From Escherichia coli (GTDB lineage Bacteria > Pseudomonadota > Gammaproteobacteria > Enterobacterales > Enterobacteriaceae): a stretch of DNA of 64,000 bases. The notes beneath the pieces are model-generated. The model saw only the letters and a list, made by a program, of their open reading frames with translations, did no database searches and was not told the origin of the DNA. A program made the position numbers and the translations under genes. Location of the stretch: the NCBI RefSeq assembly GCF_003018255.1, contig NZ_CP027440.1; one strand, written 5' to 3'. Shown piece by piece: positions 1,453-10,555 of this stretch; the first letter of the stretch is position 1, and each line of letters begins with the position of its first letter.

Positions 1453-2796
1453 ATGGCGAACAGCATCACGGCGGATGAGATTCGGGAACAGTTTTCGCAG
1501 GCAATGTCAGCCATGTACCAGCAAGAAGTTCCGCAGTACGGTACGCTGCTGGAACTGGTAGCTGATGTGAATCTGGCTGTGCTGGAAAACAATCCTCAAC
1601 TGCACGAAAAAATGGTAAATGCAGACGAGCTGGCGCGACTGAATGTTGAACGTCATGGGGCGATTCGTGTTGGGACTGCACAAGAGCTTGCTACTCTTCG
1701 GCGGATGTTTGCCATTATGGGGATGTACCCGGTGAGCTATTACGATCTCTCGCAGGCGGGGGTGCCGGTACATTCCACAGCATTTCGGCCCATTGATGAT
1801 GCTTCTCTGGCGCGTAATCCCTTCCGCGTTTTTACTTCATTACTCCGCCTTGAGCTTATCGAGAACGAAATTTTGCGCCAGAAAGCGGCGGAGATTCTGC
1901 GTCAGCGCGATATCTTCACCCCACGTTGTCGACAACTGTTAGAGGAATATGAGCAGCGGGGCGGTTTTAACGAAACACAGGCACAGGAGTTTGTGCAGGA
2001 AGCCCTGGAAACGTTTCGTTGGCACCAGTCAGCAACGGTAGATGAAGAAACCTATCGCGCCTTGCACAACGAACATCGGTTGATTGCTGATGTGGTCTGT
2101 TTTCCTGGATGCCATATCAACCACCTGACGCCACGCACGCTGGATATTGACCGGGTGCAGTCGATGATGCCTGAATGCGGAATTGAACCCAAAATTCTGA
2201 TCGAAGGGCCGCCGCGCCGCGAGGTACCGATTTTACTACGCCAGACTAGCTTTAAAGCACTGGAAGAGACGGTGTTGTTTGCAGGGCAGAAACAGGGCAC
2301 GCATACCGCGCGCTTTGGTGAAATAGAACAGCGTGGCGTGGCATTAACGCCGAAAGGACGACAACTGTATGATGATCTACTGCGGAACGCTGGAACCGGG
2401 CAGGATAATCTCACTCACCAAATGCATTTACAGGAAACCTTCCGCACTTTTCCTGACAGTGAGTTTTTAATGCGTCAGCAAGGGTTGGCATGGTTCCGGT
2501 ACCGTCTGACGCCTTCAGGTGAGACGCATCGTCAGGCGATTCATCCCGGAGACGATCCACAGCCCTTAATTGAACGTGGTTGGGTAGTGGCGCAACCCAT
2601 TACCTATGAAGATTTCTTGCCTGTTAGCGCGGCGGGGATCTTCCAGTCAAATCTGGGTAATGAAACGCAGGCACGCAGTCACGGTAATGCCAGTCGCGAA
2701 GCATTTGAGCAGGCGTTGGGCTGCCCGGTTTTGGATGAGTTCCAGCTTTATCAGGAAGCGGAAGAACGCAGTAAACGTCGCTGTGGTTTGCTTTAA
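1453..2796 (+). CDS. ydcJ: DUF1338-family putative metalloenzyme (2-oxoadipate dioxygenase/decarboxylase-like)
   Basis: 447-aa ORF with GGAGG ribosome-binding site; divergent from ydcI; sequence recognised as YdcJ. Confidence 0.85.
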   Translation: MANSITADEIREQFSQAMSAMYQQEVPQYGTLLELVADVNLAVLENNPQLHEKMVNADELARLNVERHGAIRVGTAQELATLRRMFAIMGMYPVSYYDLSQAGVPVHSTAFRPIDDASLARNPFRVFTSLLRLELIENEILRQKAAEILRQRDIFTPRCRQLLEEYEQRGGFNETQAQEFVQEALETFRWHQSATVDEETYRALHNEHRLIADVVCFPGCHINHLTPRTLDIDRVQSMMPECGIEPKILIEGPPRREVPILLRQTSFKALEETVLFAGQKQGTHTARFGEIEQRGVALTPKGRQLYDDLLRNAGTGQDNLTHQMHLQETFRTFPDSEFLMRQQGLAWFRYRLTPSGETHRQAIHPGDDPQPLIERGWVVAQPITYEDFLPVSAAGIFQSNLGNETQARSHGNASREAFEQALGCPVLDEFQLYQEAEERSKRRCGLL

Positions 2797-3020
2797 ATTC
2801 TGACCATCCGCCTTTGCAAAAATTTGCCTGATTTTACAAACGAATCAGGCTCATCCCATCGACATAAAAAAATTGCCGATTTATGCATATTCTCTCAGTT
2901 CAACAATTGGATTATTAATAAATATTGTCTAGAGTGAGCGGTCATAAATAAGCACTTTCTTGCCGCTGAAAACGATCAGCGCGGGACCATTCACAACACC
3001 AGAAGGACTCACTTTCAGGT

Positions 3021-4676
3021 ATGGATCGTAGACGATTTATTAAAGGTTCAATGGCTATGGCCGCCGTGTGCGGTACCAGCGGCATTGCTTCTCTTTTTTC
3101 TCAGGCGGCATTCGCGGCAGATTCTGATATTGCCGACGGGCAAACCCAACGTTTTGACTTCTCCATTCTACAGTCAATGGCGCACGACTTAGCGCAAACA
3201 GCGTGGCGTGGTGCGCCGCGTCCGTTACCTGACACTCTGGCGACAATGACGCCGCAGGCTTATAACAGTATTCAATACGACGCCGAAAAATCGCTCTGGC
3301 ATAACGTTGAGAACCGTCAACTGGACGCTCAGTTCTTCCATATGGGAATGGGATTCCGTCGCCGCGTTCGTATGTTTTCTGTAGATCCAGCAACACATCT
3401 GGCGCGTGAAATTCACTTTCGCCCGGAGTTGTTCAAATACAACGATGCGGGTGTTGATACCAAACAATTAGAAGGGCAAAGTGATCTCGGTTTTGCCGGT
3501 TTTCGCGTGTTTAAAGCCCCCGAACTGGCGCGCCGTGATGTCGTATCATTCCTCGGCGCGAGTTATTTCCGCGCGGTTGATGATACATATCAATACGGTT
3601 TGTCGGCCCGCGGCCTGGCGATCGACACTTACACCGACAGTAAAGAAGAGTTCCCCGACTTTACTGACTTCTGGTTTGATACGGTAAAACCGGGGGCAAC
3701 CACCTTTACCGTTTATGCGTTGCTCGATAGCGCCAGCATTACTGGTGCCTATAAGTTCACTATCCATTGTGAGAAAAGTCAGGTGATTATGGATGTGGAA
3801 AATCACCTGTATGCGCGCAAAGACATTAAACAGCTGGGCATTGCGCCGATGACCAGCATGTTCAGCTGCGGTACTAATGAACGTCGGATGTGCGACACCA
3901 TTCATCCGCAAATCCATGACTCTGATCGTTTGTCCATGTGGCGGGGCAATGGCGAGTGGATTTGTCGTCCGCTGAATAATCCGCAAAAATTGCAGTTCAA
4001 TGCTTACACCGACAACAACCCGAAAGGGTTTGGTTTATTGCAACTGGATCGTGATTTCTCCCATTATCAGGACATTATGGGCTGGTATAACAAACGCCCA
4101 AGTCTGTGGGTGGAGCCGCGTAACAAGTGGGGTAAGGGCACCATCGGCCTGATGGAAATCCCAACAACGGGCGAAACGCTGGATAACATTGTCTGCTTCT
4201 GGCAGCCAGAAAAAGCGGTAAAAGCGGGTGATGAGTTTGCATTCCAGTATCGTCTGTACTGGAGTGCGCAACCGCCTGTTCATTGCCCATTAGCGCGCGT
4301 TATGGCGACGCGTACCGGCATGGGCGGTTTCCCGGAAGGTTGGGCGCCAGGTGAACACTATCCCGAAAAATGGGCGCGACGTTTTGCCGTCGATTTCGTT
4401 GGTGGTGATCTGAAAGCTGCCGCGCCAAAAGGCATTGAGCCGGTGATTACGCTTTCCAGTGGGGAAGCGAAACAAATCGAAATTCTCTATATTGAACCCA
4501 TTGATGGTTATCGTATTCAGTTTGACTGGTATCCGACTTCGGACTCCACTGATCCGGTCGATATGCGGATGTATCTGCGTTGTCAGGGCGACGCTATCAG
4601 TGAAACATGGCTGTATCAGTATTTCCCGCCAGCGCCGGATAAACGTCAGTATGTTGATGACCGCGTGATGAGTTAA
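3021..4676 (+). CDS. opgD: Glucans biosynthesis protein D (periplasmic, Tat-exported)
   Basis: 551-aa ORF; N-terminal twin-arginine signal [10 protein letters not shown]...AFA; recognised as OpgD/MdoD. Confidence 0.9.
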
Positions 4677-6737: not shown

Positions 6738-7730
6738 ATGCAGAGCGATAAAGTGCTCAATTTGCCGGCAGGCTACTTTGGTATTGTGTTGGGGACGATA
6801 GGGATGGGATTTGCCTGGCGCTATGCCAGCCAGGTTTGGCAGGTCAGCCACTGGTTAGGGGATGGGCTGGTGATTCTGGCGATGATCATCTGGGGATTAT
6901 TAACTAGCGCATTTATTACCCGACTCATACGCTTTCCGCATAGCGTGCTGGCGGAAGTGCGCCATCCAGTGCTGAGCAGTTTTGTGAGTTTGTTTCCGGC
7001 AACGACGATGCTGGTGGCGATTGGTTTTGTTCCGTGGTTTCGCCCACTGGCGGTGTGCCTGTTCAGTTTTGGCGTCGTGGTTCAGTTGGCTTATGCCGCC
7101 TGGCAAACTGCGGGATTATGGCGCGGATCTCACCCTGAAGAAGCTACCACGCCTGGACTGTATCTGCCGACAGTTGCCAACAACTTTATCAGCGCAATGG
7201 CCTGTGGTGCGTTGGGCTACACCGACGCCGGTCTGGTGTTTTTAGGCGCAGGCGTTTTCTCATGGCTAAGCCTTGAACCTGTGATCTTGCAGCGTCTGCG
7301 CAGTTCGGGAGAATTACCCACGGCGCTGCGGACATCACTCGGCATTCAGCTCGCTCCTGCGCTGGTGGCCTGTAGTGCCTGGCTGAGCGTCAACGGCGGC
7401 GAGGGTGACACGCTGGCGAAAATGCTTTTCGGTTATGGACTGCTGCAACTGCTGTTTATGCTACGTCTGATGCCATGGTATCTCTCCCAGCCATTTAATG
7501 CTTCATTCTGGAGTTTCTCGTTCGGCGTATCTGCACTGGCAACCACCGGTTTGCATCTGGGGAGTGGCAGCGATAATGGATTTTTCCATACGCTGGCGGT
7601 GCCGCTGTTTATCTTTACCAATTTTATTATTGCAATACTGCTCATCCGTACTTTTGCGCTTCTGATGCAGGGAAAATTGTTAATCAGAACCGAGCGCGCC
7701 GTTTTAATGAAAGCAGAGGACAAAGAATGA
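6738..7730 (+). CDS. tehA: Tellurite resistance protein TehA (C4-dicarboxylate/SLAC-family membrane protein)
   Basis: ORF 6630..7730; ATG at 6738 ([15 protein letters not shown]...) gives 330 aa; polytopic membrane protein. Confidence 0.85.
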
Positions 7731-8320
7731 TCATTCGTGACGAAAACTATTTTACTGATAAATATGAATTAACTCGCACACACTCTGAAGTGCTGGAAGC
7801 GGTGAAAGTGGTTAAACCGGGTAAAACGCTGGATCTGGGCTGTGGCAATGGTCGTAACAGTCTTTACCTGGCAGCCAATGGTTATGATGTTGACGCATGG
7901 GATAAAAATGCCATGAGTATCGCCAACGTCGAGCGGATTAAATCCATTGAAAATCTGGAGAATTTACACACCCGGGTCGTTGATCTGAATAACCTCACAT
8001 TTGATGGACAGTATGATTTTATTCTTTCGACTGTGGTGCTGATGTTCCTTGAGGCTAAAACCATCCCAGGGCTGATTGCCAATATGCAACGTTGCACTAA
8101 ACCTGGCGGTTACAACCTGATTGTGGCGGCGATGGATACCGCTGATTATCCATGTACCGTCGGCTTCCCGTTTGCCTTCAAAGAGGGGGAATTACGTCGA
8201 TATTACGAAGGCTGGGAGATGGTGAAATACAATGAAGACGTCGGCGAGCTGCACCGCACCGACGCCAACGGTAATCGTATTAAACTGCGTTTCGCCACGA
8301 TGCTGGCACGTAAAAAATGA
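7727..8320 (+). CDS. tehB: Tellurite methyltransferase (SAM-dependent)
   Basis: 197-aa ORF overlapping tehA stop by 4 nt (ATGA); SAM-binding motif [15 protein letters not shown]. Confidence 0.9.
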
Positions 8321-8482
8321 CCCGCTAGGAACAAGGCGCGTGAAAATTCCCCACGCTGAGATGGTTTACTGTTCTTCTTTTCGGTAAGCATATTTTTTAT
8401 CGAATGGATGTGAAATTAATCACAGTAGTCGAAATTTTTTAGCAGCTTAACTTACTGAAATTTAACTACTGATGATTGACTT

Positions 8483-8581
8483 AGCCCCTTTTTCGGCAGC
8501 CCCTTTTTCGGCATTGACTATGTCTTTTTCGGCATTGACTATGTCTTTTTCGGCATTGACTATGTCGTCTGAAAAGGGGCT
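8483..8581. repeat. Three perfect tandem copies of 21-bp unit ctttttcggcattgactatgt (8503-8565), preceded by two copies of gcccctttttcggca, flanked by inverted repeat agcccctttt / aaaaggggct
   Basis: Read directly from sequence in tehB-ydcL intergenic region. Confidence 0.7.
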
Positions 8582-8679
8582 AAAAAATTTATTTTCACCA
8601 ACACTTTTTTTGCCACAACACGAAGCGGCGCTTTTTGCTATAACTTAGAAAGTAATATAATCATCTCAGGAAACTATTC

Positions 8680-9348
8680 ATGCGTACCACATCAATTGCG
8701 AAAGTTGCAGCTTTATGCGGCTTGTTGGCTCTGTCTGGTTGTGCCTCTAAAATCACCCAGCCAGATAAATATTCTGGTTTTTTAAACAATTACTCTGATT
8801 TAAAAGAAACAACCTCAGCAACAGGTAAACCTGTTTTACGTTGGGTAGACCCGAGTTTTGATCAAAGCAAATATGACAGCATCGTCTGGAACCCAGTCAC
8901 TTATTATCCGGTACCGAAACCATCTACCCAGGTAGGGCAGAAAGTTCTGGATAAAATTTTGAGTTATACCAACACCGAAATGAAAGAAGCGATTGCGCAG
9001 CGTAAACCACTGGTTACCACCGCTGGGCCGCGTAGTCTGATTTTCCGTGGGGCCATTACCGGTGTAGATACCAGCAAAGAAGGGCTGCAATTCTATGAAG
9101 TGGTTCCTGTTGCATTAGTGGTTGCGGGGACGCAAATGGCGACGGGCCACCGTACCATGGATACTCGCCTGTATTTTGAAGGTGAGCTGATTGATGCAGC
9201 GACTAATAAACCGGTTATCAAAGTCGTTCGTCAGGGCGAAGGTAAAGACCTGAATAACGAAAGTACGCCAATGGCTTTCGAAAATATTAAACAAGTTATT
9301 GATGACATGGCGACCGATGCCACCATGTTTGACGTTAACAAAAAGTAA
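8680..9348 (+). CDS. ydcL: Lipoprotein (DUF3313 family)
   Basis: 222-aa ORF; signal peptide with lipobox LSGC. Confidence 0.85.
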   Translation: MRTTSIAKVAALCGLLALSGCASKITQPDKYSGFLNNYSDLKETTSATGKPVLRWVDPSFDQSKYDSIVWNPVTYYPVPKPSTQVGQKVLDKILSYTNTEMKEAIAQRKPLVTTAGPRSLIFRGAITGVDTSKEGLQFYEVVPVALVVAGTQMATGHRTMDTRLYFEGELIDAATNKPVIKVVRQGEGKDLNNESTPMAFENIKQVIDDMATDATMFDVNKK

Positions 9349-9356
9349 TACCAGTT

Positions 9357-9382
9357 GCGCCATCGTTAGATGGCGCTTTTTA
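9357..9382 (+). terminator. Rho-independent terminator downstream of ydcL
   Basis: Hairpin gcgccatc-gtta-gatggcgc followed by TTTTT. Confidence 0.55.
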
Positions 9383-10555
9383 TTATCGGTTTCTGTTAGC
9401 GATTAAATTCAACACCACGTAACAAACGCCTCCGGCAATTAATCCCCAGAACGCAGAACCAATCCCGACCAGCGTCAATCCACTTGCCGTTACCAGAAAT
9501 GCCACCACCGCCGCGTCGCGCTCACGCTCATTATGCAGCGCCTGATACAAACTGCCGCCAATGGTACTCAACAGCGCAAGACCTGCCAGCATCTGGATCC
9601 AACTTACGGGCAGGGCAGCCATCATCCCGGTAATGGCACTACCAAACAGACCTGCGATCAAATAAAAAATGCCGGCAACGGCAGCGGCCAGCCAACGTTG
9701 ATCTTTATCCGGATGCGCTTCCGGGCTTTGGCAAATAGCCGCGGTGATTGCCGCAATACCGACGGAATAAACGCCGAAAGGGGAAAAAAACAGTGCCAGC
9801 AATCCAGTAAACACAATTAATGGCGAAACAGGAGCCGAATATCCAGCTGCTTTCATTGCTGCGATACCCGGTGCGTTTTGCGATGCCATCGTCACCAGAA
9901 AAAGGGGGAGTGCAACGCTCAGGCTGTGAGCAAACGAAAAATCAGGGCTAATATAAGTGGGGAGAACGGGTTTAAAGACAACATCAGTTGTGACAACGTC
10001 ACCTTGCGCGATAACGATCACGACCCCAATAATCATCGCGGCAATTACCGCATAGCGCGGTGCAACGGCCTTGGTTGCCAGCCATACCAGCAACATACTG
10101 CCACACAACGTAAATTGATCATCCAGACTGGCAAACGCCTGTAAACCAAAGCGTAATAAAATCCCGGCAAGCATTGCCGCCGCAAGCGAGTGCGGAATAA
10201 TGCGCATCAGACGAGCAAAGAGTCCCGTTATGCCGCAGAGGACTATTAACGCGTTGGTGACAATAAAAACGCCGATGGCTTCGTTAAGTGTTAGTCCCTG
10301 TAATCCGGTGACCAACAAAGCCGCGCCAGGCGTTGACCATGCGGTGAGAACAGGTACGCGATACCATAATGTCAGAGCCAGCGTACTGACGCCCATTGCC
10401 AGCCCCAGCGCCGTCATCCAGCCAGAGATTTGTGCAGTGGTGGCTCCGGCGACAATCGCTGCTTGCCAGATTATTGCCGCTGAACTGGCGTAGCCAATTA
10501 ATACCGCCAGAAACCCCGCCAGTAGCGTGGGTGGAGGAATAGAAAACAGACGCAT
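9383..10555 (-). CDS. ydcO: BenE-family (benzoate transporter-like) inner membrane protein
   Basis: ORF 9383..10678; start set at ATG 10555 (MRLFSIPPPTLLAGF...); highly hydrophobic. Confidence 0.8.
   Translation of the reverse strand: MRLFSIPPPTLLAGFLAVLIGYASSAAIIWQAAIVAGATTAQISGWMTALGLAMGVSTLALTLWYRVPVLTAWSTPGAALLVTGLQGLTLNEAIGVFIVTNALIVLCGITGLFARLMRIIPHSLAAAMLAGILLRFGLQAFASLDDQFTLCGSMLLVWLATKAVAPRYAVIAAMIIGVVIVIAQGDVVTTDVVFKPVLPTYISPDFSFAHSLSVALPLFLVTMASQNAPGIAAMKAAGYSAPVSPLIVFTGLLALFFSPFGVYSVGIAAITAAICQSPEAHPDKDQRWLAAAVAGIFYLIAGLFGSAITGMMAALPVSWIQMLAGLALLSTIGGSLYQALHNERERDAAVVAFLVTASGLTLVGIGSAFWGLIAGGVCYVVLNLIANRNR

Follow-up and report, generated by a model that had tools for sequence, protein, structure and literature searches.

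The tehB–ydcL spacer and its tandem repeats

The stretch of DNA analysed here, called the window in what follows, is 64,000 nucleotides of Escherichia coli (contig NZ_CP027440.1 of assembly GCF_003018255.1), and in it tehB, the last gene of tehAB, is followed on the same strand by ydcL, which encodes a DUF3313 lipoprotein (Table 1). Within the spacer between these genes lies a perfect 21-mer, CTTTTTCGGCATTGACTATGT, in three head-to-tail copies, and before it a 15-mer, AGCCCCTTTTTCGGC, in two tandem copies. Both arrays had been described in a first-pass annotation made from the letters alone, and both are real: reading of the sequence, Tandem Repeats Finder and a repeat search agree on the three 21-mers at 8503-8565, which Tandem Repeats Finder delimits as 8503-8566 with a period of 21, 3.0 copies and 100% matches, and the same program gives the pair of 15-mers (8483-8512) as 8483-8513 with a period of 15, 2.1 copies and 100% matches. 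Read along the strand, the order of elements is ...gattgactt AGCCCCTTTTTCGGC AGCCCCTTTTTCGGC ATTGACTATGT CTTTTTCGGCATTGACTATGT CTTTTTCGGCATTGACTATGT CGTCTG AAAAGGGGCT aaaaaatttattttc... The 21-mers are placed between tehB and ydcL as first described, starting 183 bp past the tehB stop codon and ending 115 bp before the ydcL ATG. As to the inverted repeat that was said to frame the array, it exists, and its arms turn out to be slightly longer than was thought, 12 nt each (8481-8492 and 8572-8583). A second copy of the left arm is found at 8498-8507 by the repeat search, and the triplicated 21-mer covers the inner part of the left arm together with an inner mini-hairpin, GGCAT-TGACT-ATGTC.

Table 1. 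Features of the tehB–ydcL region of the window
Feature	Position	Strand	Remarks
tehB coding sequence, last gene of tehAB	7727-8320	+	ORF list; RefSeq annotation of identical or near-identical loci
58-aa open reading frame through the repeats	8472-8648	+	39 aa in K-12; spurious, not considered a gene
Hairpin left arm, first copy, TTAGCCCCTTTT	8481-8492	+	12 nt, 100% complementary to 8572-8583
15-mer AGCCCCTTTTTCGGC, two tandem copies	8483-8497, 8498-8512	+	duplicates the left arm; single-copy in most E. coli
21-mer CTTTTTCGGCATTGACTATGT, three tandem copies	8503-8523, 8524-8544, 8545-8565	+	single-copy in most E. coli
Hairpin right arm, AAAAGGGGCTAA	8572-8583	+	never duplicated in any allele
T-rich tract, TTTATTTT	8588-8595	+	starts 6 nt past the stem
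Candidate extended -10 or sigma-S-like -10 for ydcL, TGCTATAAC	8636-8644	+	conserved columns; putative promoter role
ydcL coding sequence (DUF3313 lipoprotein)	8680-9348	+	ORF list; RefSeq annotation of matching loci

Repeats of this kind are far beyond chance. Elsewhere in the 64-kb window the 21-mer has no match even when 3 mismatches are allowed, and 0 are expected from shuffles. An assembly artefact is ruled out, since 71-72 complete genomes, all independent, and one contig from a metagenome have the same duplication junctions.

How is ydcL itself transcribed? The TTTGCTA columns of the candidate -10 element are invariant in the alignment from Escherichia through Salmonella and Citrobacter, and the repeats are located approximately 85-170 bp upstream of the ydcL start or -10 that this element would provide, so placed that they would fall outside the usual activator positions for the candidate promoter. 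A scan of the window for sigma-70 promoter-like sites on the plus strand found none created by the repeats. From published screens, a peak of the RpoS holoenzyme has been mapped, at low resolution, to the spacer between tehB and ydcL by genomic SELEX (PMC5493296), and ydcL expression falls about 5-fold when rob is deleted (PMC7537768). A second candidate for the ydcL -10, a perfect TATAAT at 8656-8661, is seen in Escherichia only.

The spacer also contains a perfect CRP-core palindrome, TGTGA-AATTAA-TCACA, at 8409-8424, which is conserved across E. coli, the cryptic clades and E. albertii. Its distance from the likely ydcL start downstream, about 175 bp in K-12 and 235 bp in the window, exceeds what classical activation allows. 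Escherichia sp. MOD1-EC7003, Salmonella and Citrobacter lack a segment of approximately 130 bp (8325-8450) that carries this core, and in the genomes without it the end of tehB is found 0-35 nt before the hairpin. The segment may be either an insertion in the line of E. coli and E. albertii or a deletion elsewhere.

One copy is the norm in E. coli

When the 359-bp spacer of the window was compared by megablast with 5,426 complete E. coli genomes, 5,412 of them matched it, in one place each, and the aligned length was 301-303 bp in nearly all. Alignment with K-12, O157:H7 and three other strains gives one clean gap of 57 bp against the window. Apart from 75, the approximately 5,400 spacer-bearing genomes, K-12 and O157 among them, have each unit once, and the 15-mer and the 21-mer overlap; the region then amounts to one hairpin, AGCCCCTTTTTCGGCATTGACTATGTCGTCTGAAAAGGGGCT. 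The single-copy state is thus that of about 98.6% of E. coli genomes and of all the other Escherichia species examined. Five of the spacer matches are on plasmid-labelled records, which could represent stretches of chromosome on large plasmids or contigs that were assigned wrongly.

Expanded alleles were collected with a query of 181 bp that had the repeats at its centre and by extraction from representative loci, and were counted with junction-specific megablast queries of 36-41 nt, which cannot seed on single-copy alleles. Alleles are written here as the number of 15-mers followed by that of 21-mers, so that (1,1) is the norm in E. coli. At least two 21-mers are carried by 71 of the 5,426 genomes and at least two 15-mers by 72, and these junction totals reconcile to 75 genomes with an expanded allele (1.4%): 67 with (2,2), which is the common expanded form, three with (1,2), three with (2,1), one with (3,1), strain 104, and one with (2,3), strain MDR_56, which shares this allele with the window. 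Among 241 million metagenome records scanned for the 21-mer junction, one contig matched, again with (2,2). More than three copies of either unit were found in none of the complete E. coli genomes or metagenome records scanned. It had been suggested at first sight that the tract might be expandable and variable in copy number, and that this could be checked by comparing E. coli genomes; the comparison, with six alleles and one to three copies per unit, bears this out, and the expansion is confined to one lineage.

A hairpin behind tehB

What is the element in which these units reside? In single-copy form it is predicted to fold as RNA with -26.7 kcal/mol over 91 nt (z = -4.9), and the fold as single-stranded DNA has the same shape and the same z of -4.9. 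The predicted structure consists of an outer stem of 10-13 bp, a UCU bulge of 3 nt, an inner stem of 5-6 bp and a 5-nt loop, UGACU. For the window, the RNA fold pairs the first left arm (8481-8492) with the right arm at P = 0.97, and when all six alleles were modelled thermodynamically, the summed probability that the right arm pairs with some copy of the left arm was about 1 in each; the closing stem is therefore predicted to survive every expansion, the 15-57 nt that the expansions add being accommodated inside the hairpin.

The hairpin sequence is specific to Escherichia, where it occurs in E. coli, the cryptic clades and E. albertii. Among eight Escherichia hairpins compared by RNAalifold the stem is kept, with changes that are one-sided or consistent and with no compensatory double change. 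Since compensatory covariation is lacking, conservation of the stem could reflect the DNA sequence instead of the structure. Two ATTGACT motifs, one in the loop and another 23 bp upstream, are invariant across Escherichia, and this could mean a protein site whose dosage is changed by the triplication. A scan of 7700-9400 against Rfam 15 (E <= 1) brought no family at its gathering score; the sole hit, to a Tetrahymena snoRNA model whose gathering score is 70, had 17.8 bits and E = 0.41 and is irrelevant.

The position of the hairpin is shared far more broadly than its sequence, as a survey of 80 genus-level ydcL loci of Enterobacteriaceae shows. In 45 of the 80, tehB is directly upstream of ydcL, and nearly all of these 45 have a strong hairpin that starts 0-35 nt past the tehB stop and ends approximately 80-105 nt before the ydcL ATG. 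That of E. coli lies 163 nt past the stop, further than in other genera, and ends 98 nt before the ATG; the same hairpin in Escherichia sp. MOD1-EC7003 begins 35 nt past the stop. Under a strict terminator rule, which was reimplemented for this purpose, nine of the 45 spacers contain a site, about seven of them at the post-tehB position. Trabulsiella is among the genera with a canonical terminator there, and three of the nine, those of Yokenella (GTGCCGCTCTGCCAGAGCGGCAC followed by TTATTTTT), Atlantibacter (GCTGGC...GCCAGC followed by TATTTATTTT) and Enterobacter sp. ENT03, were confirmed by the original terminator scan. The T-rich tract of E. coli, TTTATTTT, matches the tail TATTTATTTT of the Atlantibacter terminator at the corresponding place. 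The terminator scan itself reports no terminator-like site on the plus strand of the window or of K-12, and in E. coli, Salmonella, Citrobacter and Kluyvera the canonical test fails on the distance of the U run, which is not within 2 nt of the stem.

Because a hairpin is conserved at the post-tehB position and is a canonical terminator in some genera, we infer from its position that the E. coli hairpin would be a terminator-derived stem-loop at the 3′ end of the tehAB transcript. With intrinsic terminators it shares the stable, G+C-closed stem past the last gene, about 100 nt before the ydcL promoter and ATG, and the T-rich tract that follows; it differs from them in the GAAAAA or AAAAAA that separates the stem from the T tract and in its long, bulged interior. 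A stable hairpin past a stop codon and without an adjacent U tract is also reminiscent, by analogy only, of the protective 3′-end stem-loops of Rho-terminated transcripts (Dar and Sorek, 2018; PMC6061677). In what was covered of Term-seq, transcription start and operon-map data (Adams, 2021; TERMITe, 2025; Dar and Sorek, 2018; Choe, 2022; Conway, 2014; Thomason, 2015), no entry for tehB or ydcL and no 3′-end or transcription start record for the spacer was found.

Lineage and origin of the expanded alleles

The expanded alleles belong together. All sampled (2,x) and (3,1) carriers show 0 mismatches to the window over 1,461 nt of left flank and 2 over 1,400 nt of right flank. Every expanded genome inspected has a common TehB protein allele, and also a common TehA allele except for the (1,2) strain, in which tehA is frameshifted. 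This sampled (1,2) carrier has the tehB and ydcL protein alleles of the lineage and a differing pattern of SNPs in ydcO; it is to be noted that its frameshift offsets the left-flank comparison. When 24 kb of flanking sequence was used as a query, 73 genomes were at least 99% identical, approximately the number of expanded carriers, and all the others were below 99%. With a synthetic (1,1) query that carries the SNPs of the lineage, 69 genomes were at least 99% identical, and among the 40 matches listed of these 69 there was no single-copy member of the lineage, all being expanded alleles that split into two pieces. One of the carriers, the avian-pathogenic strain APEC O2-211, is ST117 (PMC6256689), and many others are avian or O78:H4 isolates. 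The near-identical flanks, the 73 genomes that are at least 99% identical over 24 kb and the sequence type of APEC O2-211 together place the origin of the duplication at the base of an ST117-type lineage or close to it.

Within this lineage the number of copies has not stayed still. Eight of the 75 genomes (approximately 11%) deviate from the modal allele, which is the behaviour of a low-copy VNTR. The flanks of the window are identical over 2.85 kb to those of JNE23-011, a (2,2) strain, and MDR_56, which is (2,3) as the window is, differs from the window at 12 sites in ydcL and ydcO. Since (2,3) thus occurs on two flank backgrounds, the third 21-mer must have been gained at least twice or have been moved by recombination. 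In ydcO (9894-10127), approximately 10 SNPs set the window, JNE23-011 and JNE112863 apart from the other genomes of the lineage, MDR_56 among them, and this cluster looks like a small recombination patch.

We therefore regard the tract, with a probability of about 0.7, as a lineage-specific and slippage-prone mini-VNTR that arose inside a single, older hairpin between tehB and ydcL. The local sequence of single-copy strains, TTAGCCCCTTTTTCGGCATTGACTATGTCGTCTGAAAAGGGGCT, is one imperfect hairpin, and this is the ancestral state. In the ancestor of the ST117-type lineage, the overlapping 15-mer and 21-mer of the left arm and loop were duplicated in tandem to give the modal (2,2); the primary junctions have only 1 nt of microhomology each, a C where the 21-mer was duplicated and an A where the 15-mer was, and the perfect identity of the copies indicates that the duplication is recent. 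Once perfect direct repeats of 15-21 bp were present, a minority of the descendants gained or lost units, leading to (2,1), (3,1), (1,2) and the (2,3) of the window, probably driven by replication slippage with slipped-strand mispairing or by unequal recombination. The hairpin would stop or stabilise the tehAB mRNA and insulate the ydcL promoter. Since the insertions are interior and the closing stem is not lost in the models, the expansions are most likely selectively near-neutral.

Like the VNTR or minisatellite loci used for MLVA in bacteria, the tract has perfect head-to-tail copies of 15-21 bp whose number varies among strains, and outgroups with a single copy. Gains and losses may recur here as in such loci, the (2,3) allele being on the two flank backgrounds of the window and MDR_56, or recombination may have moved it. 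Unlike VNTR loci, it has only one to three copies, is limited to one lineage and consists of two overlapping, nested units. A literature search found neither this locus in an MLVA scheme nor a repeat described for ydcL or tehB. The classical contingency loci of phase variation have units of 1-8 nt in many copies, situated in a promoter spacer or a reading frame, and units of 15 and 21 nt in one to three copies, about 85-170 bp upstream of the likely ydcL -10, do not belong there. An intergenic imperfect palindrome between co-directional genes is a trait in common with REP/BIME and ERIC elements; dispersed repeats of these kinds and boxC are nevertheless rejected, since the median is one place per genome across 5,400 genomes and similarity to the REP consensus is absent. 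RefSeq annotates nothing in the tract, and the REP/RIP-type identity that the first-pass annotation had named as a challenge to its proposal is not borne out. A REP-like or IS200/IS605-end-like hairpin was rejected as well, the hairpin being single-locus and present with or without an IS. In K-12, IS609 remnants are found downstream of ydcL.

Alternative explanations

The repeats had been proposed to be a phased array of regulator binding sites, and such an array could be imagined as follows: a transcription factor or RNA polymerase binds the ATTGACT unit, and its triplication at a 21-bp spacing changes the expression of ydcL or tehAB in an adaptive way. ATTGACT does resemble a -35 element or the half-site of a direct repeat and is invariant in all Escherichia, in the loop as well as 23 bp upstream; the repeats precede the likely ydcL promoter by approximately 85-150 bp, a successful lineage with ST117 strains among its members is fixed for the expanded state, and ydcL responds to RpoS and Rob in the published screens. 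Against this, one copy is present in about 98.6% of genomes and in every outgroup, the copy number is not constant even inside the lineage, the repeats lie much further upstream than activator sites typically do, and no known motif has been assigned to the unit. Because the repeats are upstream of the usual activator positions and create no sigma-70 promoter-like site, it is on the invariance of ATTGACT that this explanation depends, and we consider it unlikely. An iteron or regulator-site array is recognised by copies that are conserved across strains and species, and here they are not. The 21-bp period, which had been equated with two helical turns, is set by how long a single duplicated segment was and does not speak for helical phasing. 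Judged by the genome comparison, the tract is a copy-number polymorphism of an ordinary kind rather than a conserved set of regulator sites. A gene can be preceded by perfect, seemingly phased repeats that are a very recent mutational accident, and comparing genomes shows this at once.

It might also be imagined that the repeats are of the mini-VNTR kind and yet not neutral, so that an insert of 36-57 bp with up to three extra ATTGACT or mini-hairpin modules, placed inside the hairpin and upstream of the ydcL promoter, alters termination or read-through of tehAB or the expression of ydcL, which encodes an outer-membrane lipoprotein. We think this quite unlikely. If it were true, fixation at the base of the ST117-type lineage would reflect selection and the later copy changes would tune expression; should expression of a reporter prove to depend on copy number, the locus would be a small natural case of regulatory tuning by a minisatellite. 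Very unlikely, too, is a separate transcript, be it a small RNA or an extended 5′ leader of ydcL, from a CRP-dependent promoter near 8409-8424, in which case the expansions would alter the structure of the RNA. A perfect TGTGA-N6-TCACA, which is conserved between E. coli and E. albertii, precedes the hairpin by 59 bp; this and the T-rich tract after the hairpin are in favour of such a transcript, but the region matches no Rfam family, no promoter-like site is seen on the plus strand from the CRP core to the hairpin, and the hairpin is still present in MOD1-EC7003, Salmonella and Citrobacter, from which the CRP segment is absent. That the repeats are an in-frame expansion within a small protein gene, the 58-aa open reading frame of Table 1, is hardly credible. 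Both units are multiples of three that keep the frame and add repeats of 5 and 7 residues, and PGAP calls a 'hypothetical protein' there in one genome; the call, however, is found in one of nine expanded genomes inspected, with no feature under the other listed carrier matches. The coding reading was rejected because two members of Escherichia have lost the ATG (E. albertii has ATA there, Escherichia sp. E1V33 has ACG), O157 has a 1-nt insertion that shifts the frame, and a Shine-Dalgarno sequence is absent.

The mini-VNTR reading leaves a locus that is otherwise routine, with tandem duplication and slippage in an intergenic hairpin, and that may still be of practical use: the 36-bp insertion of (2,2) is a clean, PCR-sized marker of an ST117-type lineage with many poultry isolates, and the rarer alleles subdivide this lineage. 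Users of annotated genomes should also be aware that spurious open reading frames across such repeats are occasionally called by PGAP. The one call seen here, a protein of 51 aa (WP_462074326.1) across the (2,2) repeat, is on NZ_CM142764.1 only (locus 1495-1650) and is likely to be a false gene call.

Other observations in the spacer

In strain E66 (NZ_CM173951.1, locus 1556-3055), IS1 copies interrupt the spacer after 55 bp, and ydcL was not found in this locus. On the minus strand of the window, a promoter-like site, TTCACA-16-TATGCT, at 8387-8414 overlaps the CRP core. About 30-45 nt downstream of this site, K-12 has a terminator-like hairpin on the same strand, GCGTGGGGAATTTTCACGC followed by GTTTTGTGCT (8338-8356 in the window, 1518-1536 in the K-12 locus), whose T tail has no conserved counterpart in the window strain. 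This minus-strand pair may specify an RNA at the 3′ end of tehB, either an antisense or a small RNA, that would be very short and CRP-dependent.
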